Below are positions 31,158 to 54,031 of a DNA stretch of 59,891 nucleotides, one piece after another (positions within the stretch are counted from its first letter, which is position 1; each line of letters opens with the position of its first letter). Made by a program: the position numbers and the translations under genes. The notes below the pieces were generated by a model that was given only the letters and a program-made list of their open reading frames with translations, searched no databases and was not told where the DNA came from. Source of the stretch: a virus; the IMG/VR virus record IMGVR_UViG_3300006111_000001; one strand, given 5' to 3'.

Positions 31158-31952
31158 CTATCGCTTGCCCCATGCAGAGGCGAGAGGATTGTAATCAACT
31201 TCATGTTTGTTTGGTCGCAACCCAGCGCGCACGCGGTAATCGTCAACCGGACGAAATGCGGCAATGTCAATCCCGCTCATAATCCCATACCGCATGCAGT
31301 CCATTAAATGGTCATTTTCTTTGACCACTTGCCCCTTATCGTCCCGGCGATAAATGCGATACTCGCTTAACGTATTTTGCAGCGTTTTAAATATTTTAAG
31401 CCGCCCCGTCGATAATCGCATCCAGGTCCGATATATGCCCGCTTCCCTCGCATTATTGGCCGTAATCAGCGTTAATCCTAATTGTTGATATTCCCATAAC
31501 AATTGCTCGCCATCCTTTTGTGCTCGACCGCGTGACGCCGGATCAATAACCCCCGGTATCCACTCTCCGCGCGCCTTAATGGCTTGAGCGTGAGTCGATG
31601 GTTCAGCCTGCCCGCGATAATGTTCAGAATAAGCGTAAACCACGTCCGATTCGGTATCATGCGCAAACCACAATCCCGCCGTTCTATTCCATCCCACGTC
31701 CATGGCGTAAAAATGTTTCCAATGAGCGGGTATTTCGAACGGATCACAGGTCACGTCATCTTCCGGCACCGGATAAATGGCGCCCGATCCAAGGGCCGGA
31801 ATGCCTTTGGTGCGCGCGTCCCGTTCATGCGGAGCATAAGACTTAATCATTTCCGCTTGCGCTTCCGCTGATATGTGCGGAACGTCTGCCCAGGAAACGA
31901 ATGTAATGTATTTCGCCATTTCCGTTAGCCGTTTTGCAAAGCAACGGCCCAA
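31158..31952 (-). CDS. terL: Terminase large subunit, C-terminal nuclease portion
   Basis: 264 aa; RNase-H-like terminase nuclease pattern (…HFYAMDVGWNRTAG…, …ENDHLMDCMRYG…). Probable true start is MAKYITF at ~31919, 5 nt after the HNH stop. Confidence 0.7.
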   Translation of the reverse strand: MGRCFAKRLTEMAKYITFVSWADVPHISAEAQAEMIKSYAPHERDARTKGIPALGSGAIYPVPEDDVTCDPFEIPAHWKHFYAMDVGWNRTAGLWFAHDTESDVVYAYSEHYRGQAEPSTHAQAIKARGEWIPGVIDPASRGRAQKDGEQLLWEYQQLGLTLITANNAREAGIYRTWMRLSTGRLKIFKTLQNTLSEYRIYRRDDKGQVVKENDHLMDCMRYGIMSGIDIAAFRPVDDYRVRAGLRPNKHEVDYNPLASAWGKR

Positions 31953-32449
31953 CGCTTGCCGCGAACAATGCGCCCAATTTGCGTTTGTTTTACCCCAAAC
32001 ATTTCACCTAATTGTCGTTGATAAAATTTGCCGCTTTTCCAAAGGCTTAATATCTTACGCACATCATCGACAGACAAGACGGCGTTATGATGCCGCTCAC
32101 CCATCAAACTTGTCCCATGCTTTCGCTTGTCCAAATGATTTGACGACCGAGTATCCCATCTTAGATTTGAATAATGGTTATTCGATGGATCGCCGTCGAT
32201 ATGGCAAATTTCCGCCCCGTCAAACGGCTTTAACCCTATAAAAGCATACGCAACCAATTGATGAGCTTTTTTGTGGATCGACTTACCATCCTTACGCAAA
32301 ATCACCATTGGATAGCCGTCAGATCGAATCCACATCTTCAATATTTTGCCAATGCGCGCGCCGGGAGCAGCCGTAACGCGACGAACAGCGCCCCATTCAC
32401 TAACTTCATAATCCTCAAAACCAGGCACAATCCGCCATTCAGCAATCAT
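31925..32449 (-). CDS. HNH homing endonuclease inserted within terL
   Basis: 174 aa; N-terminal NUMOD4-like (YEVSEWGAVRR) and HNH core (HQLVAYAFIG…ICHIDGDPSNNHYSNLRWDTRSSNH). Start overlaps the TerL-ATPase stop (ATGA). Confidence 0.8.
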   Translation of the reverse strand: MIAEWRIVPGFEDYEVSEWGAVRRVTAAPGARIGKILKMWIRSDGYPMVILRKDGKSIHKKAHQLVAYAFIGLKPFDGAEICHIDGDPSNNHYSNLRWDTRSSNHLDKRKHGTSLMGERHHNAVLSVDDVRKILSLWKSGKFYQRQLGEMFGVKQTQIGRIVRGKRWAVALQNG

Positions 32450-33219
32450 GACTTAACCTCCCCTTCCAAACGCGCACCACCCGGCATGAATGAAAGAACC
32501 ACAGCCGAAAGGCCGCGCAGCGGCGTGAACCCGCATATCACCAACCCGGACGGTTGACCGGGCACGGTCGAAAGCGTTCGAGTTAAGCCTTCCGAGTAAA
32601 TGTCCAATGGCGGTTCTTCATCAAATTGCATAATGTCGATTTTGGCCGCTTGGAACGATTCACGCCCCTGATCATAGGATTTAAACAGCATCCGCGACAC
32701 GCCGCCCGATAAATGCTTGACCGTCACGCTATCCACAGCATCCGGCACGCCCGGCCTTGGTGTCGCCTTGATGATATTGTCAGCCGGTATTAAACCCGTG
32801 CCATGGTCCCCGGTTGGCCCCAAATACGTCACTTGCAAGGATTCGCGGACGGCCTTGGTATCTTCGCCCGCCGCCCACATGGTCACAGGGCGATCAAACT
32901 TGCGCCCAACCCACCAATGGGGATACCAACCAGTTAAATGAAGGGCGCACTCATACGAACACCCAAACGTCTTTCCCGATCGGTTGCCGCCGACCAAAGC
33001 CCGCTCTTGATACGTGGCCCCAGCCGCAAAATGGGCCAAATGCTTAGGGTATAATTCGCGCCGCAATGGCCCGGTATCAGGATAAGCCCGGTAAAGCAGC
33101 GTCTTGCGGTAAATGTCATGCTCTAATTCGATAATGGCCTTAAGGCGCGCATAATCATCCACCGGCAGCGCTGCCAATTGTTCTGGCGTCAGCGCCGCAA
33201 CTTCATCGAACAAAGCCAC
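32446..33219 (-). CDS. terL: Terminase large subunit, N-terminal ATPase portion
   Basis: 257 aa; Walker A (GGNRSGKT), Walker B-like (IDIMQFDEEPP); ends where the HNH ORF begins. Confidence 0.75.
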   Translation of the reverse strand: MALFDEVAALTPEQLAALPVDDYARLKAIIELEHDIYRKTLLYRAYPDTGPLRRELYPKHLAHFAAGATYQERALVGGNRSGKTFGCSYECALHLTGWYPHWWVGRKFDRPVTMWAAGEDTKAVRESLQVTYLGPTGDHGTGLIPADNIIKATPRPGVPDAVDSVTVKHLSGGVSRMLFKSYDQGRESFQAAKIDIMQFDEEPPLDIYSEGLTRTLSTVPGQPSGLVICGFTPLRGLSAVVLSFMPGGARLEGEVKS

Positions 33220-34845: not shown

Positions 34846-35406
34846 TTACCCAAACCTCCGCCCGACAAATTCCGCATGCCGCTTAAATGACCGCTCCCGC
34901 TTCTTATCCAAAGGAAAATAAGCAATGGCAGCGTGATCCGCGCAATATGGCTTATTCGATAACTTTGCGTCTTGGCAGTAACGCCAAACATTATCTTGCG
35001 GCCCCGGATTGCCATAGACCCAGCAGCACCCGCACGGTTCTTTAACACCCTCACCGGCCACAACATCACCCCACGCCGGATCAATCGGCAGTGATTTAGA
35101 TACCAAGCGCGGCTTCATTGGTTCAGTGACCAGCCTGGGCATCCGCAGCCCTTTAAACCCCATCACGCGCTTTGCATGTGCCTTGGCCTTTGGCTTTTGT
35201 TCGACCGGCTCCTGATCCGCCCCCTTGGCATTTGACAGCTTAAGCCCCAACCGCCGCAATTGCCCCATAACTGCATTGCGCGTGATATGCCATCCAGCCG
35301 CCTCCGAAGCAATTAAAGCAATCTGGCTGGACGATGCCCCAGGAGTTTTTTCCCAAGCCTCTCGAATGTATTTGCGCGAGTCCGAAATCTGAATGGCGTT
35401 TCTCAT
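34846..35406 (-). CDS. GcrA-like cell-cycle regulator homolog
   Basis: 186 aa; N-terminal …SSSQIALIASEAAGWHITRNAVMGQLRRLGLKL matches the GcrA N-terminal DNA-binding pattern; C-terminal …CGCCWVYGNPGPQDNVWRYCQDAKLSNKPYCADHAAIAY matches the GcrA C-terminal Cys/His pattern. Confidence 0.7.
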   Translation of the reverse strand: MRNAIQISDSRKYIREAWEKTPGASSSQIALIASEAAGWHITRNAVMGQLRRLGLKLSNAKGADQEPVEQKPKAKAHAKRVMGFKGLRMPRLVTEPMKPRLVSKSLPIDPAWGDVVAGEGVKEPCGCCWVYGNPGPQDNVWRYCQDAKLSNKPYCADHAAIAYFPLDKKRERSFKRHAEFVGRRFG

Positions 35407-36771: not shown

Positions 36772-37032
36772 TCAACCCGCCTTCCGGTTACGCTTGCGCG
36801 TGCCGCGCAGGTGCATAATTGACGTGTGATCCCGATTTAATAATCGCCCCATTTGTGCGCACGACAACCCCAGCGGGGCCATCGCCATTACAGCAGCCCG
36901 ACGAGCCGCAACCAATTCACGAAACCGAGCCTCGCCTTTAATTTCATCAATGGTAAACCCATGGGATTTAGCCACTTCTGCAATGACATACCGGCCACGC
37001 TCAAAACTGTTAATGTGCTCAGGAATAATCAT
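36772..37032 (-). CDS. DnaA domain IV-like HTH protein
   Basis: 86 aa; …AARRAAVMAMAPLGLSCAQMGRLLNRDHTSIMHLRG… resembles the DnaA C-terminal DNA-binding signature (…RDHTTV…). Confidence 0.55.
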   Translation of the reverse strand: MIIPEHINSFERGRYVIAEVAKSHGFTIDEIKGEARFRELVAARRAAVMAMAPLGLSCAQMGRLLNRDHTSIMHLRGTRKRNRKAG

Positions 37033-37907
37033 GCGGCATCCCCAAATAAATTTGATTGCCGATCAACGGAATCCAAATACCGGCACGCCTGGCGCCAATA
37101 AGCCTCTTTCAGTTCCGTGCCAATAAACTTTCGGCCTAGCTTGAGAGACATATACCCCTCAGATCCAATCCCCATAAATGGGCTCAAAACCACATCCCCG
37201 GCATTGCTCCACATAATCAAGGCCCGCTCAATCACATCAAGCTGCAATGGACACAAATGGCGCTCATCATTATGTTCCCGCGCCATGTGGACGTTCAAAA
37301 CATTGGATTGGTTGACAGTCATCCATACCGGGCTGGCCCATTCCTGCCATTGTTCAACGGGGAAATCTTCCGGCGTATGAGTGATAGGATCAGCATTCTC
37401 GCCCGGTTTCACAAACGTCAAAAGGTAATCGGGCATCCCGCCGCGACTTTTGGCGCTGTCTTTTTTTAGCTGCTTATAAAGCAAGCCGACATGCTTTGTA
37501 CGGGTCATTTCCGTGACAGGGCATTTCCAGATCGTGCGCCGTGAATGCAAAATCCATCCTTCCGCCTCATGAGCACGAATAATTTGCCCGCTGAAATCCT
37601 TGATCCCAACCGCGCCATCTTTCCATTTAGTCATCGGGAGATCGGAGCAATGAACGGCAGTCAGCCGCCCAGGTTTGGTTACACGGAATTTTTCGCGCAC
37701 CAAAAATTGATAATGGGCTGCAAATTCTTCATCAGTAGAATTGCCCATATCGGCGGCACTGGTCGAATAAACAAACAGCGATCCGAAAGGCGGCGAATAG
37801 ACCGAAAAATCAATGCTTTCGCTCGGTAACTGGCTTATGACGCTAACGCAGTCTCCGTTGAACGCCGCAAACCGCTCGCCGTGGTATTCGTTGTCGCAGT
37901 CAACCAT
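37029..37907 (-). CDS. DNA methyltransferase, N4/N6 class (beta permutation; SPPF motif)
   Basis: 292 aa; catalytic motif IV as …DFSVYSPPFG… precedes an AdoMet motif I-like …DVVLSPFMGIGSEG…; SPPF/SPPY is commonest in N4-cytosine enzymes but does not fix specificity. Confidence 0.7.
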   Translation of the reverse strand: MVDCDNEYHGERFAAFNGDCVSVISQLPSESIDFSVYSPPFGSLFVYSTSAADMGNSTDEEFAAHYQFLVREKFRVTKPGRLTAVHCSDLPMTKWKDGAVGIKDFSGQIIRAHEAEGWILHSRRTIWKCPVTEMTRTKHVGLLYKQLKKDSAKSRGGMPDYLLTFVKPGENADPITHTPEDFPVEQWQEWASPVWMTVNQSNVLNVHMAREHNDERHLCPLQLDVIERALIMWSNAGDVVLSPFMGIGSEGYMSLKLGRKFIGTELKEAYWRQACRYLDSVDRQSNLFGDAA

Positions 37908-39313
37908 GATGGTAGTCTCCCTTTGTGTTTAGGTTCGTAAGCAATCTTTGTTTGTTGAGTAGTGGTAGCAGACCGAAGCATGGCGGCGCGCATGGCGGAT
38001 TTCATCTTGCTGTGATCCATCGCCTTGCGGTCAATCACGCGTCCGATCTCGGATTCACCCTCTGCAACGATCAAGTGAACATTGACAGGTTTAGTCTGTC
38101 CAAACCGCCAGCAACGGCGGACGGCCTGATACCATGTCTCATAGGAATAGCCGCGACCGACAAACGCCATATCAGCGCAATGCGACCAATCTAAGCCATA
38201 TCCAAGCATCGACGGCTTGCCGATCAGCACCTTGATATCGCCCGAAGCAAAAGCCTCTAGTCGGCTTTCCTTTTCATCAATGGATTGTGCCCCCCGAACC
38301 TCAACCGCAAAAGGCAAAGCCTTTTTAACGCTGTCGGCTTCATAATCGGTATCAACCCAAATGATCCACGGTTTATCTTGAGTGACGAAGCCGCCCAAAA
38401 CATCCGTTCTAGCGGCAGCGGTTTGACGTTTCACGTCATGCAGATTGGTCGCTGATAGGGCCAGATGGGCAAATAGATCATTGCCATCGGTTTTAATTTC
38501 GGTTTGGGCCGCCTGATGCCGGATAATTTCCATCGGCGGCAGATCAAACCGCGAGTCAGTTTCCATGTCCCCCAGATCAGCCGGACGTTCAGCCATCCGG
38601 CACCAAGATGCCATCCAATCCCAAAATGAAATCTCAGCATGACCCTTAAGCCGCCACTCTTGGGAAGCGGTTGAAGTGTCATTGATAAAGAACCGGGATA
38701 GCATTTCATTTGCGGCCATGATTTCAAGAAATTCAGCATAATTGCCAATTTCCATGTGATCATTCGGGGCCGGTGTCGCGGTCGCTGTCAGCTTAAACCG
38801 ATGACCCTTGAACGCATCAATCAACGCCCGCGTGGTTTTATTTGTAAATGATTTAAGAATTGACGCCTCATCAAGTGACACGGCACCAAAAGCATCAGGA
38901 TCAATCTTATCCAAGCGGTCATAATTGCAAATGTTAATTCCTGGTCCAACATCTGACATTTCGCGGATTACGCGGGCCTCATAACCATACTTATCCGCCC
39001 GGCGCTTGGTTTGTTGCGCGACAGCTAACGGCGTCAGCAATAAACCGCGCCCGTTAGTCGCCTTCATGGCGTGGTACAAATACTCAAGCTGGATCTCGGT
39101 TTTGCCCATGCCAGTGTCTAAAAACAACCCAGCCGCGCCGACGCGCAAATTATGGTCAACGCATTCGCGCTGAAACGGAAACAAATGATCCGCTAACAAC
39201 GCATCGCCCTTTAAGCCGCGCATAACCGCACGAGGCTGCTTGGACGCAAGAAAAGATTGATAATCACCGTTCATTTGGTGTCCCAGCATAAAATTTTGTG
39301 TCAACCGGCTCAC
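37835..39313 (-). CDS. SNF2-like superfamily-2 helicase/ATPase
   Basis: 492 aa; Walker A (LDTGMGKT), DEAH-like motif II (VSLDEAS), motif III (LTATATP), and C-terminal …QAVRRCWRFGQTKPVNVHLIVAEGESE typical of SNF2 motif VI. Confidence 0.7.
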   Translation of the reverse strand: MSRLTQNFMLGHQMNGDYQSFLASKQPRAVMRGLKGDALLADHLFPFQRECVDHNLRVGAAGLFLDTGMGKTEIQLEYLYHAMKATNGRGLLLTPLAVAQQTKRRADKYGYEARVIREMSDVGPGINICNYDRLDKIDPDAFGAVSLDEASILKSFTNKTTRALIDAFKGHRFKLTATATPAPNDHMEIGNYAEFLEIMAANEMLSRFFINDTSTASQEWRLKGHAEISFWDWMASWCRMAERPADLGDMETDSRFDLPPMEIIRHQAAQTEIKTDGNDLFAHLALSATNLHDVKRQTAAARTDVLGGFVTQDKPWIIWVDTDYEADSVKKALPFAVEVRGAQSIDEKESRLEAFASGDIKVLIGKPSMLGYGLDWSHCADMAFVGRGYSYETWYQAVRRCWRFGQTKPVNVHLIVAEGESEIGRVIDRKAMDHSKMKSAMRAAMLRSATTTQQTKIAYEPKHKGRLPSWLTATTNTTASGLRRSTETALAS

Positions 39314-39466
39314 CCTCGCCTATCCATTCCAGGCACTCGCTCCAATATTCATGGTGCGAAAGCCCATTGTTTCGACCCGTGCGCGCCCATTTGCCGGTGC
39401 CTATGGCCCAATCCACTTGAGACTTGGGAAAGTGGCGAAAATACCGGATTGCGGGCGCCGCACTCA

Positions 39467-40654
39467 TCATGCCGCCGCCCTCACATCCATATATGCACCT
39501 ATGAACTCTGCCGCTGCTTGCGGGACAATCGCGTTACCGAAGCCGCGCAACATACCCACTCGGTTGGGTAGCCCATCAACCAAGAGACAAATTCCGGGTT
39601 TAACTGGCCTGGCTTTTCCGTCGATCCCGACAATCCGTTCTGCATCGGCCCAATAATTGCCGCTTGAACGTTCAACGCTTGGCTGTTGCGTTCGAATTGT
39701 GACGGCCCCGCGTTGTTTTTGGCGTCGTTCGTTGTCGGCGTCGACCAATAAACCATAGACGGAAGCGTCATGCTCCCCGATCCGTATTTCTGGTTCGGTC
39801 CGCCCTTGTCGCCGTCTGTCGCTTTGGGCGTCGACCAAAGCGCCGGCACATGATCCTGCAAATTGACCTGGTGCCCCGATTGTATCCGGGCTGCCGCTTT
39901 GTCCGGGTCCGTATAGTCCCCGCCGCCCTTCTCGCGCACTTGCGGCGTCGCCCAAAGCGCCGTCGTCTGGCGCAACAACAAGCCCCCTTGTAAATTCGGT
40001 TGAAGCTGCGCGCCCGTCCCGTCGTTCGCCCGAGGCGTCGGCCAAAGTGCTTGGATCGTATTCTGTAGCGTCACTGTTGCTTTTGAGCCGTCCGGCCGGA
40101 CCCCTGTCGGCGTCGTACCGGGAGGATTGCTTTGCCCGCCGCTCGGAGTTGTGGGCGTGGGCCACAAAGAACAATCGGTCGCGGCGGTGCGGCGCGCCGA
40201 CGGCACAAGCCGGAATAATCGCCGCCCCAACGGCGTAATCAAGTCCTTCAAGATCATTGGCGACATTGTCGAGCCATGATTGACCAACCGCTGCCGCAAC
40301 CTGTTCGCCAAACAGGTTTGAAGGTCGACACTCGCCGACGAGCCGAAACAATTCCGGCCAGAGGTGACGCTTGTCGTCGACCCCTTGCCGCTTTCCCGCG
40401 ACACTGAAGGGCTGGCATGGTGGCGAGCCGGTCCAGACGGGACGGTCGACCGGCCATCCGGCAAGTCTAAGAGCCTCGGCCCATCCCCCGATTCCGGCGA
40501 AGAAATGGACTTGGTCGAATCCGACAAGGTCGGCGCCGGTGACGTCGCAAATAGATCGAATGTCGACGAATCCATCTGGAATCAATCCTTGTTTGATTAG
40601 CTCGCGCAACCAAGCAGCGGCAAACGGATCGTTTTCGTTGTAATAAGCCGTCAT
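39467..40654 (-). CDS. DNA (cytosine-5) methyltransferase; conserved motifs split between two reading frames
   Basis: 395-aa frame carries motif I (FFAGIGG), motif IV (GSPPCQPFSVAG), motif VI (FGEQV), motif VIII-like (RRDRLFFV) and C-terminal motif X-like (GNAIVPQAAAEFI). The overlapping frame 39499..40575 carries five LW(P/A/S)TP repeats and a motif IX-like LMGYPTEW. Confidence 0.65.
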   Translation of the reverse strand: MTAYYNENDPFAAAWLRELIKQGLIPDGFVDIRSICDVTGADLVGFDQVHFFAGIGGWAEALRLAGWPVDRPVWTGSPPCQPFSVAGKRQGVDDKRHLWPELFRLVGECRPSNLFGEQVAAAVGQSWLDNVANDLEGLDYAVGAAIIPACAVGAPHRRDRLFFVAHAHNSERRAKQSSRYDADRGPAGRLKSNSDATEYDPSTLADASGERRDGRAASTEFTRGLVVAPDDGALGDAASAREGRRGLYGPGQSGSPDTIGAPGQFAGSCAGALVDAQSDRRRQGRTEPEIRIGEHDASVYGLLVDADNERRQKQRGAVTIRTQQPSVERSSGNYWADAERIVGIDGKARPVKPGICLLVDGLPNRVGMLRGFGNAIVPQAAAEFIGAYMDVRAAA

Positions 40655-41082
40655 GCCGCCACCGCATCCAATTCAAATGCTTCGATGGTTACTTTGACCT
40701 TGGGCTTATCCGCCCAATGCCGCCGCACGGTCAGCCAAATGATTTGCTTGTCATCTTGGTACACAACGCCGTTAAGAGCATCGCAAACCGCCTTGGCGAC
40801 ATTATCCAGATCGACCCGATGAATCGGTGCAAACGTCCCTTTTAAAGCCGCATTGCGTTGACGTGCTGGCCAAGATTTAGGAGGCACGACAAACACATTG
40901 ATGGTCGCCGCTATGGCATTGCCAACCGGATCATCTTTGAACACGGCGCGCGCCGCCCATTGAACGGCTTGCTCATATTCAACCGTCTTGGCGGGAGTAT
41001 AAACATGACCCTGTTTGGTCATGCGCGGACGCTGTTTGCCGACCGGCTCCCCGCCAATTTCAAATGTCGCCAAGTGACGCAT
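40651..41082 (-). CDS. rusA: RusA-family Holliday junction resolvase
   Basis: 143 aa; …EIGGEPVGKQRPRMTKQGHVYTP… and overall RusA pattern. Confidence 0.8.
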   Translation of the reverse strand: MRHLATFEIGGEPVGKQRPRMTKQGHVYTPAKTVEYEQAVQWAARAVFKDDPVGNAIAATINVFVVPPKSWPARQRNAALKGTFAPIHRVDLDNVAKAVCDALNGVVYQDDKQIIWLTVRRHWADKPKVKVTIEAFELDAVAA

Positions 41083-41450
41083 CAGGCCGCAACACGCTTT
41101 AATGCGGCTTCACCCAACGGAGTGGTGGCAAGCATGCCCAAAGCGTTCAAATACAATTCCAGCTTTGCTTCTTCTTCATCGCGCTGCGCTTTGTCTTTTT
41201 TGCGAAGCGCAATGACCTTGCGGATGATTTTGGTTTCAAACCCGTGAGCAGCCGCCTCCGCGTACACATCCTTAATGTCCCCAGCCAGCTCTGCCTTCTC
41301 GGTTTCAAGGCGCTCAATCCGCTCCACTATTGACTGCAATTGTCCGTTTGAAATTGTCATTCTCAATCTCCAAAAAGGCCAGGGCCAAAGCCCCGGCAAG
41401 TTGAGGGAGGTACGCCCGTGTGGGCCTGTTGAGCAGGTAAAAACCCGCAA
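41082..41450 (-). CDS. gapR: GapR-like (DUF2312) nucleoid-associated protein
   Basis: 122 aa; …QLQSIVERIERLETEKAELAGDIKDVYAEAAAHGFETKIIRKVIALRKKDKAQRDEEEAKLELYLNALGM closely follows the Caulobacter GapR/DUF2312 sequence. Confidence 0.8.
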   Translation of the reverse strand: MRVFTCSTGPHGRTSLNLPGLWPWPFWRLRMTISNGQLQSIVERIERLETEKAELAGDIKDVYAEAAAHGFETKIIRKVIALRKKDKAQRDEEEAKLELYLNALGMLATTPLGEAALKRVAA

Positions 41451-42125: not shown

Positions 42126-42374
42126 CTAGCCAGCATTACGCACCTCATCATTTTGAGATTGCGGCAATGGCACCAAAAAAATGTCTGGCCTTAATTCGCA
42201 CCGGGAAATACCGGTTGCCCTTTCAATGGCCAACGCATTTTCGGCTGAAATCTTGGTTGAACGATTAACCCATGCCCAAATGGACGGCTGTTTGACCCCA
42301 ATGGCGCGGGCCAAGGCGTTTTGTCCACCGGCAATCTCTAATGCGCGTTGCAGCGCGGTTATAGGCGTGTTCAT
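42126..42374 (-). CDS. Cro-like HTH regulator
   Basis: Divergent from the CI-like gene. Track ORF begins at TTG 42410; the ATG at 42374 (MNTPITALQRALEIAGGQNALARAIGVKQPSIWAWVNRS…) is the more likely start. Confidence 0.55.
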   Translation of the reverse strand: MNTPITALQRALEIAGGQNALARAIGVKQPSIWAWVNRSTKISAENALAIERATGISRCELRPDIFLVPLPQSQNDEVRNAG

Positions 42375-42457
42375 AGGTTTGTCTATATAGGCAAACCAAA
42401 GCCGCGTCAATAGTGGATGCTATTGGAAAAATGAGTTTTTTTAATTAATGTGCGGAC
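42375..42457. promoter_or_regulatory. Divergent cI/cro-like switch region with operator-like palindromes
   Basis: Near-perfect palindrome GGTTTGtcTATATAggCAAACC (42375..42398) abutting the cro-like ATG; inverted repeat CAATAG-N6-CTATTG (42408..42425); candidate -35/-10 hexamers on both strands. Confidence 0.45.
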
Positions 42458-43120
42458 ATGGAAACTTTAGGTAAACGAGTGCGCGCCCGTCGCGCTGATT
42501 TAAAATTGTCTCAAGCGGAACTTGCCAGCCGCGTGGGCATATCTCAGCCGTCTTTATCAGCCATTGAAAATGACGAGACTCAAGGCACCACCAAAATATT
42601 AAAGCTGGCAGAAGTATTGGAATGTGACCCCAATTGGCTTTTGATGGGCAATAAACTAAAGTTTAGCGTCCCCAACAAACTTACAACTTATAAAAATAAT
42701 CCTGTTGCAAACGAATCAGTTTTTACTACCATCAATATGGGCAAAAGAGACTTACCTATTAGAGGTCTGGCTCAAGGGGGTGATGGGGTGCTAACATTTG
42801 ACCAAGACGCAATAGATTATACTTTTCGTCCATCTAATTTAGTCGGCATAGATGAAGCGTTTGCGCTTTATGTTACCGGCGACTCCATGGGCGAAGTCTT
42901 GATCCCAGGCACTTTGTTATTGGTTCACCCCAAACAAGAACCAAAAATTATGGATTTTGTCGTTATTGAAAAAATTGACCGATCCGTAATCGTTAAACGA
43001 TTGGTTCGCAGATCGGCCAATAGCGTCACCTTGCGCGAATACGACCCGCCCAATGATTTTGTGCTTTCTCGCAGCGAAATTCGAATGATGTTGCGGGTTT
43101 GCGGGACGGCCATGGAATGA
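42458..43120 (+). CDS. CI-like repressor (HTH_XRE plus S24 LexA-like peptidase domain)
   Basis: 220 aa; N-terminal …LKLSQAELASRVGISQPSLSAIENDET… HTH; C-terminal …FALYVTGDSMGEVLIPGTLLLVHP…VIVKRL… with Ser and Lys catalytic-dyad context. Confidence 0.8.
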   Translation: METLGKRVRARRADLKLSQAELASRVGISQPSLSAIENDETQGTTKILKLAEVLECDPNWLLMGNKLKFSVPNKLTTYKNNPVANESVFTTINMGKRDLPIRGLAQGGDGVLTFDQDAIDYTFRPSNLVGIDEAFALYVTGDSMGEVLIPGTLLLVHPKQEPKIMDFVVIEKIDRSVIVKRLVRRSANSVTLREYDPPNDFVLSRSEIRMMLRVCGTAME

Positions 43121-44179: not shown

Positions 44180-44740
44180 ATGCTATTCACAATCCCTTTC
44201 CGTTCATGGACTGGCAAAGCCGCATTTGAGGTCGAGATCGCCGACGATGTTGAACCGCGCTTTCAAATGCGCGCTGCCTTGTCGGTTGTGATCGGCAAAG
44301 CCAAAGAAAAGGGCGAACGTGCCAATCTCAGCCGTGCCGATCTCAGCGGTGCCGATCTCAGCGGTGCCTATCTCAGCGGTGCCGATCTCAGCGGTGCCTA
44401 TCTCAGCGGTGCCAATCTCAGCGGTGCCGATCTCAGCGGTGCCGATCTCAGCGGTGCCTATCTCAGCGGTGCCGATCTCAGCGGTGCCTATCTCAGCCGT
44501 GCTAAAGGTGCATTTTCGCTTGGAACGCCGGATGGTTGGTCGGCTGTTGCTTGGCTGCGCGACGGTTTCTTATCGATCCGCGTCGGTTGCCGAGATAAGC
44601 GGTTAGATGAAGCCCGCGCATATTGGGCCAATAAAAATGACCGGTGCGAAGTTATGGCGGCGCTGGATTACGCTGAAATAATTGCGCGCCTTCGTGGTTG
44701 GGCCATTGAAGCACCGGCTGAACAAGTGGCAGCGGAGTAA
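44180..44740 (+). CDS. Pentapeptide-repeat protein
   Basis: 186 aa; central run of ~12 consecutive pentapeptides A(D/N/Y)LSG ([25 protein letters not shown]…) flanked by unique N- and C-terminal segments. Confidence 0.75.
44327..44503 (+). repeat. Tandem 15-bp repeat (~11.8 copies) encoding the pentapeptide repeats
   Basis: Near-identical units ctcagcggtgccgat / ctcagcggtgcctat / ctcagcggtgccaat in head-to-tail array. Confidence 0.9.
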
Positions 44741-50023: not shown

Positions 50024-50341
50024 ATGAACTTCCCGCGCCCAATCCCAGCCAACAGGCAAGATGAAATTGAAATTCATCGGCCTTGGGCACGGCTGCCAAA
50101 TTGGCCGCGATTGCTACCAGAACTTTTGGCGGCTGCCTATGTCGGCGGTGTCTCGATCGGTACTTTCCGAACGGAGGTCGAACAAGGCATTTGGCCCCCG
50201 CCAATCCGGCGCGGACGGCGCATATTTTGGGATTTGGGCGACCTTGATAGGGCAGTTGACCGGCTAAAGGGCATTGTATCTGATACTCTTCCTGATCAAC
50301 CTTCGGGCCTCGGGGACATAAATTGGGACAAATCCGCTTGA
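50024..50341 (+). CDS. Excisionase / AlpA-like HTH protein
   Basis: 105 aa; …LLAAAYVGGVSIGTFRTEVEQGIWPPPIRRGRRIFWDLGDLDRAVD… resembles Xis/AlpA DNA-binding domains; immediately upstream of integrase. Confidence 0.5.
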   Translation: MNFPRPIPANRQDEIEIHRPWARLPNWPRLLPELLAAAYVGGVSIGTFRTEVEQGIWPPPIRRGRRIFWDLGDLDRAVDRLKGIVSDTLPDQPSGLGDINWDKSA

Positions 50342-51375
50342 GCCTCAGCGTGCCACGGCTCCATATCGTCGGGGACCGCTTTTATTGGCGCCCCACGGCC
50401 CCTATCCGTGCTTTGGGGTTTTCTTACGAGGCTTTGGGCAAAGACCCCATGAAAGCCGCTGCAAGGGCCAGGGAGCTTAATGAACAGGTCGAGCGGGCCA
50501 AACTAGGGTTGGATGCCAGGACCAAGCGCGGCGACACGGTGGCAGCCCTGATCGACGCCTATCAGTCCTGCCCCCGGTATAAGAGCCGGGCGGAAACCAC
50601 CCGAAAGGGCTATGACCATTTCCTAAAACACATCCGCGCGCTTGCCGGGCATGTCATTGTGGCGACCATTGACCGGCCCGGCATGTTGCAGACCTATGAG
50701 AAGCTAATCGCCGCCAGGGGCCTTTATACCGCCAATGCGTATATGAAGGTCTGGCAGATATTGCTTAAGCACGCCTATGACCTCGGATGGCGCAAAGATA
50801 ACCCCGCCGCCGGGCTTGGGCTTCAAACGCCGCCGCCGCGAGAGCAAGTCTGGACGGTCGATCAAATCCTTGCATTTTGTGATGCCGCCGTGGAAATGGG
50901 CAGGCCGTCCATGCGTCTGGCGATGCTATTGGCCTATGACCTTGGGCAACGCCCTGGCGACTATATCAAGCTGACTTGGACCACTTACACCGGGTCCGGG
51001 TTTATGATTAAGCAGTCCAAGACCAAAACCCGCGTCAATGCGCCGTTCGAAAACCCGTTTCTTTGGGCTGAAATCGACGCCATGCCGCGCAAACACTCGC
51101 ATGTCTTGATTTGTGAGGGGACCAAAGCCCCCTATAAGGCTGATTATTTCCGGCACCTATGCACCAAGATCAGGCGCGCGGCCAAACTGCCGGAACAGCT
51201 TCAATTCCGCGATCTGCGCCGGACAGCCGCCACGGAAATTGGCAATGCCGGGGCAACAGATGATCAGTTACGGGCGCTCCAAGGCTGGAAAACCCGGAAT
51301 CAGGCGGCGACTTATGTGGTGGTATCGTCAGCCGGTGCCGAAGGCGCTCAAGCGAAACGGAGGGCGAACAGGTAA
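50323..51375 (+). CDS. int: Tyrosine integrase
   Basis: 350 aa; N-terminal SAM-like and C-terminal catalytic patterns (…GQRPGDYIKLTW…, …FRDLRRTAATEIGNAG…LQGWKTRNQAATYV…). Confidence 0.8.
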   Translation: MGQIRLSLSVPRLHIVGDRFYWRPTAPIRALGFSYEALGKDPMKAAARARELNEQVERAKLGLDARTKRGDTVAALIDAYQSCPRYKSRAETTRKGYDHFLKHIRALAGHVIVATIDRPGMLQTYEKLIAARGLYTANAYMKVWQILLKHAYDLGWRKDNPAAGLGLQTPPPREQVWTVDQILAFCDAAVEMGRPSMRLAMLLAYDLGQRPGDYIKLTWTTYTGSGFMIKQSKTKTRVNAPFENPFLWAEIDAMPRKHSHVLICEGTKAPYKADYFRHLCTKIRRAAKLPEQLQFRDLRRTAATEIGNAGATDDQLRALQGWKTRNQAATYVVVSSAGAEGAQAKRRANR

Positions 51376-53404: not shown

Positions 53405-54031
53405 CTAATTTGCTTTGCGCTTTTTGCAATCGCGCAATCGTGTGTAAATAATGCTTTCGCTGACTTTCAGCTTGGCCGCGATTTGCTTGATCGTCAGCCC
53501 TTCCTTGCGGAGGGCTTTAATCTGTTTCAGCTTTTCAGCGGTTAGTTTCTTGGGCGCACCTTGCCAGCCGCCCTCACGTTCTTTAAACGCCTGAATACCG
53601 GCTTTAGTCCGTTCAATGGTTAGCTGGCGTTCAAATTCCGCGACAATGGCGAATAGGCCAAGGATTAGCTTGCCGGTTGCTGTGCTGAAATCGAATTGCT
53701 CTGTCAGGGATTTAAAAGACGCGCCCGCATCGGAAATCTGGTCTAGCCGTGCGTATAGTTCACGCATATTGCGGGCCAGCCGATCTAGACGCCAGACCAC
53801 AAGGGTATCGCCCTCGCGCAAATCTTTCATGGCGTGTTCAAGTGCCGGTCTGGACTTAGACGCCGCCGATTTTTTTTCGATGTGGAGATTGTCGGGCAAC
53901 ACCCCGGCACGCTTAAGCGCGTCCACTTGAAGGTCAAGTTTCTGATCTTCTGTGAACACGCGGGCATACCCGATTAATCGGGTCGCGGGCAGGTCTGGCA
54001 ATTTTGTGCGTCGTTTCAAAACCATGACCAC
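53405..54031 (-). CDS. Serine recombinase (Hin/Gin invertase-resolvase family) with Phe in place of the catalytic Ser
   Basis: 208 aa; strong family match (…DTLVVWRLDRLARNMRELYARLDQISDAGASFKSLTEQFDFSTATGKLILGLFAIVAEFERQLTIERTKAG… plus C-terminal HTH), but the nucleophile motif reads GYARVFTEDQ (codon ttc) instead of GYARVSTxxQ. Confidence 0.75.
   Translation of the reverse strand: MVMVLKRRTKLPDLPATRLIGYARVFTEDQKLDLQVDALKRAGVLPDNLHIEKKSAASKSRPALEHAMKDLREGDTLVVWRLDRLARNMRELYARLDQISDAGASFKSLTEQFDFSTATGKLILGLFAIVAEFERQLTIERTKAGIQAFKEREGGWQGAPKKLTAEKLKQIKALRKEGLTIKQIAAKLKVSESIIYTRLRDCKKRKAN

Follow-up and report, generated by a model that had tools for sequence, protein, structure and literature searches.

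The IMG/VR record IMGVR_UViG_3300006111_000001 comprises 59,891 nucleotides (nt) of viral DNA, the whole of which is called the window here, and the virus is a metagenomic, temperate tailed phage. A preliminary description, made from the letters of the window alone, had reported a cluster of four genes at 37029-41082, i.e., those for an SNF2-family ATPase, an amino-methyltransferase with an SPPF motif, a C5-cytosine methyltransferase and the resolvase RusA. Matches to Pfam and PHROG confirmed that all four genes are real and lie there, on the minus strand. Two further open reading frames (ORFs) belong to the same block, one between the ATPase and C5 genes and one nested within the C5 gene, as listed below (lengths in amino acids, aa):

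37029-37907, minus strand: beta-class amino-methyltransferase, PF01555 METHYLTRANSFERASE, 292 aa (PF01555, E 2.7e-17)
37835-39274, minus strand: SWI2/SNF2-like superfamily 2 (SF2) ATPase, classed by motifs and predicted fold, 479 aa from Met14 (phrog_62, E 7e-54)
39264-39470, minus strand: ORF without assigned function, 68 aa, a gene in the JGI record too
39467-40654, minus strand: alpha ORF of the C5 methyltransferase, 395 aa (PF00145, E 8.7e-22; phrog_363, E 2e-77)
39499-40575, minus strand: nested beta ORF, 358 aa, in the +1 frame and wholly inside alpha (phrog_1008, E 1.1e-35)
40651-41082, minus strand: RusA Holliday-junction resolvase, 143 aa (PF05866, E 3.7e-33; phrog_140, E 1.5e-39)

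Transcription runs from RusA through the C5 methyltransferase, the 68-aa ORF and the SNF2-like ATPase to the SPPF methyltransferase. The ATPase gene does precede the SPPF methyltransferase gene, as had been described, whereas RusA, which was said to follow the C5 gene, is transcribed first. Likewise, the reported gap of about 150 nt between the ATPase and C5 genes exists but is filled by the 68-aa ORF, which overlaps the stop of the gene upstream and the start of the gene downstream, and for which no match was found in Pfam, PHROG, PADLOC or NCBIfam. RusA scores 115.2 bits in Pfam against a gathering cut-off of 22.8, and its stop overlaps the start of alpha in an ATGA.

A C5 methyltransferase gene with two conserved frames

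Judged from its sequence, the C5 METHYLTRANSFERASE gene is double-coded, i.e., read in two frames to give two proteins, a feature that the preliminary description does not mention. The PF00145 match of alpha (78.4 bits against a gathering cut-off of 22) covers aa 75-177 only, and an alignment with M.HhaI is confined to motifs IV-VIII, the two together falling within aa 73-177; the PHROG 363 match spans alpha end to end (aa 1-392). The following motifs are found in alpha:

40481-40504, minus strand: motif I, FFAGIGGW
40403-40423, minus strand: motif IV, PPCQPFS
40298-40312, minus strand: motif VI, FGEQV
40175-40195, minus strand: motif VIII, APHRRDR
39518-39544, minus strand: motif X, GFGNAIVPQ

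Motifs I, IV, VI and VIII all lie in the first 166 residues and motif X lies at the end, with a linker of 168 residues (aa 167-334) in between that is of low complexity (74% G/R/D/E/S/A/P/Q) and not conserved.

The beta ORF opens with an ATG at 40575, with AAGGA 10 nt upstream, and ends with a TAG stop at 39499. Its family, PHROG 1008 ("DNA methyltransferase"), is different from the PHROG 363 of alpha. Beta begins with an N-terminal tail rich in S, T and P, followed by a conserved block GST..ITPLGRR..SARRTAAT..LWPTP (40153-40275); it carries five W(P/A/S)TP repeats, with cores at 40164, 40044, 39954, 39837 and 39747, and a motif IX-like stretch, LNPEFVSWLMGYPTEW, at 39556-39603, which is its most conserved block. 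By eye, this stretch fits the C5 motif IX consensus R.LT.RE.ARLQGFPD.F better than does the alpha-frame reading of the same DNA, which holds a weaker motif IX-like string. A set clustered at 90% contains 306 homologues of beta, with no Pfam domain among the 120 listed, and a profile built from 33 beta sequences found 32,345 cluster representatives at E<=1e-3, 8,654 of them at E<=1e-30, in a library of 1.84 billion proteins. The number of W-P-T-P repeats in relatives ranges from about 3 to 12.

Conservation of the two frames was followed in 43 non-identical full-length loci, drawn from 57 viral contigs retrieved with alpha, plus GenBank phages and the window. The +1 frame is open for 230-418 codons in all 43 loci, whereas the longest open stretch of the +2 frame is 37-151 codons. 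When the synonymous codons of alpha were shuffled within each gene 1000 times, the observed length of the +1 ORF was reached by at most 5% of the shuffles in 42 of the 43 loci, and by none in 11 loci; the +2 frame lay at the shuffle mean. Both frames are open in six GenBank phages (Cy-LDV1, RcPescado, BcepC6B, Tunturi_1, PhiXhv-18 and E. coli ST20), whose hosts are very different, and the PhiXhv-18 record annotates both frames, each as a methyltransferase.

A codon alignment of the loci gave the entropy of alpha third positions (in bits) region by region:

Alpha motifs I-VI: 1.36-1.46; alpha alone conserved
Alpha codons about 127-167 (motifs VII-VIII): 1.05; both frames conserved
Alpha linker: 1.53; beta W-P-T-P columns alone conserved (alpha amino-acid entropy about 2.7)
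Beta motif IX: 0.70; beta more conserved than alpha (0.97 vs. 1.22 bits)
Alpha motif X: 1.23; alpha conserved again, third positions relaxed

Over alpha motifs I-VI, the beta reading is an out-of-frame image of alpha (FFAGIGGW becomes TSSPESG.G). Over codons of about 127-167, the same DNA reads W.D.V..DLE...YA.G...GAPH.R.R in alpha and GST.Y.LTWK...TP.GR....L.AS.RRTS...WPTP in beta. In the columns of W-P-T-P and motif IX, the third positions of alpha are nearly fixed.

The ends of the beta frame recur as well. Stops in this frame are frequent before alpha codon 24 (a TGA at the alpha start in 38 of 43 loci, then further stops in 35 and 17), and 23 of the 43 loci have one about ten codons before the alpha stop. 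A beta-frame ATG stands near the 5' end of the open stretch in 43 of 43 loci, lies 9-44 codons upstream of alpha motif I in the 37 loci where that motif was located, and often follows GAAAGGAG, which is embedded in the alpha motif DERSI.DV. In many relatives (IMG/VR L006, L021, L047, L050, L051, L063 and others), the D-E-R-S-I codons of alpha spell GAAAGGAG, and the next D-V codons (GAT GT.) give the beta-frame ATG about 8 nt after it. Since its codons spell this string and then ATG, the conserved alpha peptide motif appears to double as the ribosome-binding site and start codon of beta.

A known enzyme with nested chains is M.EcoHK31I, a two-polypeptide C5 methyltransferase of E. coli with nested alpha and beta (Lee, Kam and Shaw 1995, via PMC2836561). 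Each expressed from its own plasmid, its two chains reconstitute activity; its beta can do without 42 or more N-terminal residues, and its recognition domain is assigned to alpha. The C5 gene of the window has the same architecture, the ORF at 39499-40575 lying inside that at 39467-40654 in the other frame and being conserved as an ORF in 43 of 43 loci, and we therefore file it, by likeness of architecture, as a member of the same nested alpha/beta kind. The part of the window beta that corresponds to the dispensable N-terminal part is the unconserved out-of-frame image of alpha. Two differences stand out: the conserved repeats, which are the probable recognition part, lie in beta in the window family, whereas the recognition domain of M.EcoHK31I lies in alpha, and M.EcoHK31I belongs to a restriction-modification pair, whereas the window C5 gene is a phage orphan. 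Our literature searches found no description of nested ORFs in phage C5 methylases.

We regard it as quite improbable that programmed ribosomal frameshifting links alpha with beta, so that the C5 methyltransferase would be a single chain. Both frames are open across the whole overlap, and beta placed between alpha motifs VIII and X would give the canonical order of motifs I-VIII, recognition domain, IX and X. However, two shifts would be required, and the beta block GST..TWK..TPxGR..RRT shares its nucleotides with alpha motifs VII-VIII, so that one chain cannot hold both. Moreover, a beta-frame ATG, often behind GAAAGGAG, is present in all 43 loci, and M.EcoHK31I works from two separately expressed chains (PMC2836561). 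Because the conserved N-terminal block of beta and alpha motifs VII-VIII share nucleotides, two polypeptides are the simpler reading.

Less probable again, to the point of being very doubtful, is that beta is an untranslated shadow of alpha, held open by codon or composition bias. Even with synonymous codons shuffled, the +1 ORFs are long, averaging 97-220 codons, and significance is marginal at a few loci; the N-terminal third of beta is an image of alpha motifs I-VI; and the searches given below returned no profile or structure match for beta. Against this, beta is conserved over the linker, where alpha is not; alpha third positions hardly vary in the columns of the W-P-T-P units and of motif IX; phages from several bacterial phyla share both the repeats and the motif IX block; and the +2 frame has no such effect. 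Two polypeptides read from one gene remain the reading we adopt.

Database records annotate different frames of this gene. In Salmonella phage W5_chr3 (L079, 383-1312) the beta frame is labelled "putative Mte8-like protein", a label from which follow-up searches led nowhere, and in E. coli phage ST20 (L009) the annotation covers only a portion of the beta frame, called a hypothetical protein, and omits alpha.

The ATPase and its methyltransferase partner

The ATPase ORF is open from a GTG at 39313 (37835-39313), and Met14 (39274) is the probable start of the protein, in agreement with the consensus of homologues and with the gene call of the JGI record that the window matches (59,867-bp metagenomic contig Ga0208618_1000037, JGI 3300025435). 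Its motifs are Walker A GMGKT, DEASxxK, TATPAPND and QAVRRCWRFGQ; the first three, together with the block QAVRRCWRFGQTKPVNVHLIV, are invariant in 32 homologues. Pfam gave Helicase_C and DEAD only, both below threshold, and no match to its SNF2 model at E<=0.01. A PDB sequence search at E<=1 returned 17 matches, 16 of which are SNF2-family proteins (among them Mot1, HELLS, ATRX, DDM1, INO80 and SsoRad54, aligned over the block QAVRRCWRFGQTKPVNVHLIV) and one RecQ4, with Mot1 the best at E 3e-3.

The AlphaFold model of the ATPase has a mean predicted local distance difference test score (pLDDT) of 64, with two RecA-like lobes at 80-96 and a poorly modelled insertion at aa 180-290. A Foldseek search of the PDB with this model returned SWI2/SNF2 remodellers at all of ranks 1-44 (E 7e-16 to 1e-12), including ISW1, Rad26, Sth1, Mot1, Chd1, Snf2 and SsoRad54, and the first non-SNF2 helicase, XPB, at rank 45. 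The hallmarks of the SWI2/SNF2 clade are thus present, i.e., two RecA-like lobes, the motifs DEAxxxK, TxTPxxN and QAxxRxxRxGQ, and an inter-lobe helical insertion, the last modelled at low confidence; the protein consists of the two lobes and the insertion, with no nuclease or other added domain. By motifs, PDB sequence matches and predicted fold, then, we class the ATPase as SNF2-like, in agreement with the preliminary description, though no Pfam SNF2 match accompanies it. SNF2 ATPases move along duplex DNA without unwinding it, displacing bound proteins. The homologues number more than 8000, at about 460 aa and 65-70% identity; because typical ones end about 30 residues earlier (93% query coverage), the last 24 codons of the ATPase are read-through over the start of the methyltransferase.

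The methyltransferase scores 63.9 bits with PF01555 against a gathering cut-off of 26.7. Motif IV, SPPF, lies near the N-terminus (aa 38-41) and is followed by DERHLCPLQL, while motif I, FMGIGSEG, is C-terminal; since motif IV precedes motif I, the protein is of the beta class. SPPF, DERH(L/I)CPLQL and the C-terminal cofactor motif F/A-G-I-G-S are invariant in six homologues from four host groups. The nearest solved chain is 2zie, an uncharacterised SPPY methylase of Thermus (E 9e-24); MboIIA, CcrM, PvuII and RsrI match at the cofactor end only. By the motif rule, S-P-P-F/Y goes with N4-cytosine and D-P-P-Y with N6-adenine, which suggests that the product of this enzyme is probably N4-methylcytosine rather than methyladenine.

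The ATPase and methyltransferase ORFs share 73 nt (37835-37907), and the methyltransferase ATG has its own ribosome-binding site, AAAGGGAG, 9 nt upstream. The JGI call begins the methyltransferase at Met54 (L010, 5907-6626), a start that is probably wrong, since the catalytic SPPF motif would be lost. A -1 frameshift joining the ATPase to the methyltransferase was considered and judged unlikely, given an in-frame TAA 7 codons upstream of the ATG and the good ribosome-binding site.

The linkage of these two genes is widespread in phages. In a tblastn search, the ATPase matched 415 phage records, and in 323 of these the match extended over 80% or more of the protein. When the window ATPase and PF01555 methyltransferase were joined artificially and the fusion was used as a query against the phage records, it matched 433, of which 306 cover at least 80% of the fusion in one place, meaning that both parts are colinear on one strand. 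About 95% of the phages with a full-length ATPase homologue (306 vs. 323) therefore carry a PF01555 methyltransferase directly downstream of it or fused to it. The hosts of these phages include Mycobacterium (cluster F), Arthrobacter, Gordonia, Flavobacterium, Pseudomonas and cyanobacteria. Examples are Whouxphf gp63/gp64 and S-LBS1 A50/A49, the latter with a 4-nt overlap, while S-CBS3 gp40 is a single 754-aa in-frame ATPase-methyltransferase fusion; within the PHROG 16 profile, the ATPase matches positions 273-601 and the methyltransferase positions 809-916.

The "DNA helicase/methylase" pairs of actinophages, cyanophages and Flavobacterium phages are homologous to the window pair (36-49% identity over the artificial fusion), with identical order, ATPase then PF01555, and an invariant SPPF; the overlap is 73 nt in the window vs. 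4-19 nt, or a fusion, in these phages. We know of no experimental test of these named relatives, and literature searches found no experimental study of the phage helicase-methylase family. Close relatives on alphaproteobacterial phage contigs, whose ATPases are 65-77% identical to that of the window, retain the pair with overlaps of 4-19 nt; neither RusA nor a C5 methyltransferase adjoins it there, and a separate DnaB is present in two of them. Matching plasmid records are rare (11 of 72,556). From the linkage or fusion in about 95% of cases, its retention in relatives and its rarity on plasmids, it follows that the conserved unit is the pair of ATPase and PF01555 methyltransferase, which is a phage trait, and that RusA and the C5 methyltransferase are variable neighbours of it.

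A 53.8-kb "plasmid" of Rhodoplanes serenus (NZ_LR026982.1; L080, 3983-7171) is a phage-like element with a short C5 methyltransferase gene of the alpha type between the genes for an SNF2-like ATPase and a PF01555 methyltransferase. With a C5 gene inserted within the pair here, methylase genes tend to gather near the SNF2-like ATPase without a fixed arrangement.

Early operon and phage setting

Besides the cluster, the window encodes a podovirus-type portal (PF12236), small and large terminase subunits and a tyrosine integrase, as well as further recombination proteins (a PD-(D/E)XK nuclease, AAA_24 and SSB). A divergent cI-like/Cro-like pair lies at 42126-43120. Upstream of RusA and downstream of Cro are a possible 200-aa ORF and then GapR; 3' of the SPPF methyltransferase are a DnaA_C-like helix-turn-helix protein and a DUF1376 replication protein. 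Neighbouring early genes overlap via ATGA or a few codons, and between 35400 and 43200 a consensus scan found promoters and terminators in numbers that did not exceed those in shuffled sequence; the genes therefore fit a single early operon on the Cro side of the cI/Cro switch, tightly packed and translationally coupled. Two genes bear on the host:

34846-35406, minus strand: GcrA-like (PF07750, E 2e-11)
41082-41450, minus strand: GapR-like (PF10073, E 3e-30)

GcrA and GapR are alphaproteobacterial chromosome and cell-cycle proteins, homologues of both of which are encoded by the window phage; related phage contigs likewise carry GcrA and GapR, plus a DnaN clamp. With both genes present, an alphaproteobacterial host is probable. 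When GenBank phage genomes were searched with the region by megablast, no near relative was found at the DNA level.

Three further features of the window were noted. The large terminase is split into a Terminase_6N part (32446-33219) and a Terminase_6C part (31158-31952), both on the minus strand, with an HNH_3 and NUMOD4 homing-endonuclease ORF (31925-32449) between them that overlaps both; the insert could be an intron-borne or free-standing homing endonuclease, or the terminase could be genuinely split. On the cI side, a pentapeptide-repeat protein is encoded at 44180-44740 on the plus strand (PF00805, E 3e-29), just upstream of the recombination genes for the PD-(D/E)XK nuclease, AAA_24 and SSB; some proteins with the pentapeptide-repeat fold mimic DNA, and this one may be another anti-defence candidate. 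Finally, the tyrosine integrase (50323-51375, plus strand) is accompanied by a recombinase of the serine resolvase/invertase type (53405-54031, minus strand; PF00239, E 6e-38).

Proposed roles and alternative explanations

On balance, we favour a reading of the cluster as three independent modules, i.e., RusA, the nested C5 pair and the pair of ATPase and SPPF methyltransferase, in which the methylases protect phage DNA. RusA would resolve recombination and replication junctions. The orphan C5-cytosine methyltransferase would be made as a nested alpha/beta pair, beta having its own start in the +1 frame inside alpha and supplying the repeat-built, probably DNA-recognising part and motif IX, and the two chains would assemble into one enzyme as with M.EcoHK31I. 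The SWI2/SNF2-like protein, a putative double-stranded DNA translocase, would work with the beta-class SPPF methyltransferase, probably an N4-cytosine enzyme; ATP-driven translocation, or the stripping of DNA-bound proteins, may allow this methyltransferase to act rapidly and fully on phage DNA as it replicates. Both methyltransferases would then shield the phage genome from host restriction during lytic growth.

No candidate for a restriction endonuclease partner was found nearby, and both methyltransferases are therefore taken as orphans, which fits self-protection. Because both are orphans, lie in an early operon, include a phage-specific pair and fit a published proposal, self-protection of phage DNA during lytic growth is the most likely role of both methylation modules. 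That proposal is due to Iyer et al. 2017 (PMC5512222), who described SWI2/SNF2 ATPases coupled to methylases in phages, with P1 DarB as the archetype, and suggested translocation-coupled methylation as a counter-restriction device protecting incoming DNA. The window pair resembles the DarB dyad in coupling a SWI2/SNF2-type ATPase to an amino-methyltransferase in a mobile element. However, in DarB-type proteins the methylase is N-terminal to the ATPase in a very large protein delivered with the DNA, whereas the window has two small early-operon proteins in the reverse order, with a beta-class SPPF methyltransferase. By analogy, the translocation-coupled logic of DarB would fit the window pair acting on replicating phage DNA; both the anti-restriction role and this coupling mechanism are what we infer.

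Several points weigh against this reading. Beta had no match among Pfam, NCBIfam and PDB profiles, its 33-sequence profile found no methyltransferase among all PDB sequences, and the single beta sequence gave chance matches only in the PDB; its AlphaFold model is poor (mean pLDDT 52), too low for a fold search, and artificial alpha-beta-alpha chimeras searched against Pfam did not extend the matched range and raised the score by about 1-2 bits. With no profile match and a poor model, the motif IX and target-recognition role of beta come from reading its letters. No long +1 ORF is nested in the alpha-type C5 gene of Rhodoplanes, and in some lineages alpha may therefore act without a partner. 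The 43 loci, collected because they resemble the full-length window protein, are phylogenetically related, which means that the per-locus tests are not independent. SPPF vs. DPPY is a rule of thumb for N4-cytosine vs. N6-adenine and not proof, and we infer the methylation activity, the base specificity, the alpha/beta assembly and the contact between ATPase and methyltransferase. Finally, the ATPase gene has replication and recombination genes around it, RusA among its neighbours, and the ATPase may have a role in DNA transactions.

The last point leads to the strongest competitor, still an unlikely one, in which the ATPase is mainly a replication or recombination motor, remodelling forks or migrating branches that feed RusA, with the methyltransferase an unrelated passenger. 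Its gene does stand among replication and recombination genes (RusA, DnaA_C-like, DUF1376), its homologues are usually annotated as "DNA helicase", some eukaryotic SNF2 proteins, e.g., Rad54, migrate junctions, and in several related phages the pair lies near genes for VRR-NUC, primase-polymerase or annealing proteins. A passenger, however, would hardly be colinear or fused in about 95% of the cases, in-frame fusions included, and adjacency to RusA is not kept in close relatives, some of which have their own DnaB. That about 95% of its full-length homologues adjoin or are fused to a PF01555 methyltransferase points strongly to the ATPase as a candidate methylation cofactor and away from a replication helicase.

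We consider it improbable that the methyltransferases serve gene regulation or timing, acting on phage promoters, packaging or a GcrA-like/GapR-like interplay, instead of protecting against restriction. In Caulobacter, GcrA acts with CcrM methylation, the phage carries the GcrA-like (34846-35406) and GapR-like (41082-41450) genes, and the C-terminus of the methyltransferase is weakly similar to CcrM. This similarity, however, is limited to the cofactor-binding end, the motif is SPPF here and DPPY in CcrM, and the pair is also found in phages of Actinobacteria, Bacteroidota and cyanobacteria, hosts without a GcrA/CcrM circuit.

Two known systems combine similar proteins. In Type III restriction-modification (Mod and Res), a PF01555-type methyltransferase stands beside an SF2 ATPase; the window ATPase (479 aa), however, has no nuclease domain, the methyltransferase best matches Type II or orphan models, and no Type III model of PADLOC is present among the 9 matches of the ATPase and among the 25 best of the 43 matches of the methyltransferase. 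DISARM likewise has an SNF2-like ATPase near an amino-methyltransferase and a C5 methyltransferase. The preliminary description had likened the ATPase and an adenine methyltransferase to the DrmD-DrmMI pair of that system, an analogy that is weak, because the invariant SPPF points to N4-cytosine; the ATPase matches DrmD in PADLOC at E 0.005 and 13 bits, with no significant stretch, and its best matches, DpdE, Cas3 and ZorD, are weak and to the common helicase core. The best PADLOC matches of the PF01555 protein are generic MTase_II (Type II/orphan) models (E 3e-24), DrmMI being absent among the 25 best of its 43 matched models, and for the C5 protein, too, generic Type II or orphan models come first; its matches to DruM and to Type II models fall on the catalytic core, with DrmMII weak.

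The same description had noted that DrmA-, DrmB- and DrmC-like genes are lacking, and a PADLOC scan for DISARM and BREX components bore this out: in 20 window ORFs (ten from the early region and ten others of 283-1826 aa), neither DrmA, DrmB, DrmC, PglZ, a BrxC-like protein nor any other BREX protein was found, no additional DISARM core gene turned up, and the ten ORFs outside the early region matched no core protein of another defence system either. A DISARM or BREX system was accordingly rejected. A DISARM-like or other defence system borne by a prophage is scarcely credible, since the resemblance of an SNF2-like ATPase beside methyltransferases to DrmD with DrmMI or DrmMII, and the weak matches to DrmD, DpdE and ZorD (ATPase) and to DrmMII and DruM (C5), stand against the 13 bits for DrmD, the missing core proteins and genes that belong to a phage and lie in its lytic early operon rather than in an island expressed in lysogeny, as the position of cI/Cro suggests. 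The initial preference for phage protection over DISARM is thus supported, protection being the probable role, but the single four-gene module is not, only the pair of ATPase and PF01555 methyltransferase being conserved.

A bolder extension can be offered only tentatively: the nested beta may be a separately translated specificity subunit whose variable W-P-T-P units act as tandem target-recognition modules, giving a multi-specific C5 methyltransferase, and double coding of this type may prevail throughout a phage methylase family that is very large and essentially without annotation. If true, few conserved overprinted gene pairs in phages would be as widespread, the beta-like protein clusters numbering more than 30,000.

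Orphan methylases and the ATPase-methylase pair are common in phage early regions, and both modules are of known kinds. For the pair, the proposed cofactor role bears on the many phage genomes that annotate this ATPase as a DNA helicase. The interest of the locus comes mainly from the C5 gene, whose double coding extends across its family and is for the most part unannotated. Gene callers report one of its two frames only, and beta is left hypothetical or loosely named a methyltransferase; recognising the alpha/beta pair would correct thousands of annotations, and the nested C5 pair offers a natural, testable system for the evolution of overlapping genes and the assembly of split methylases.

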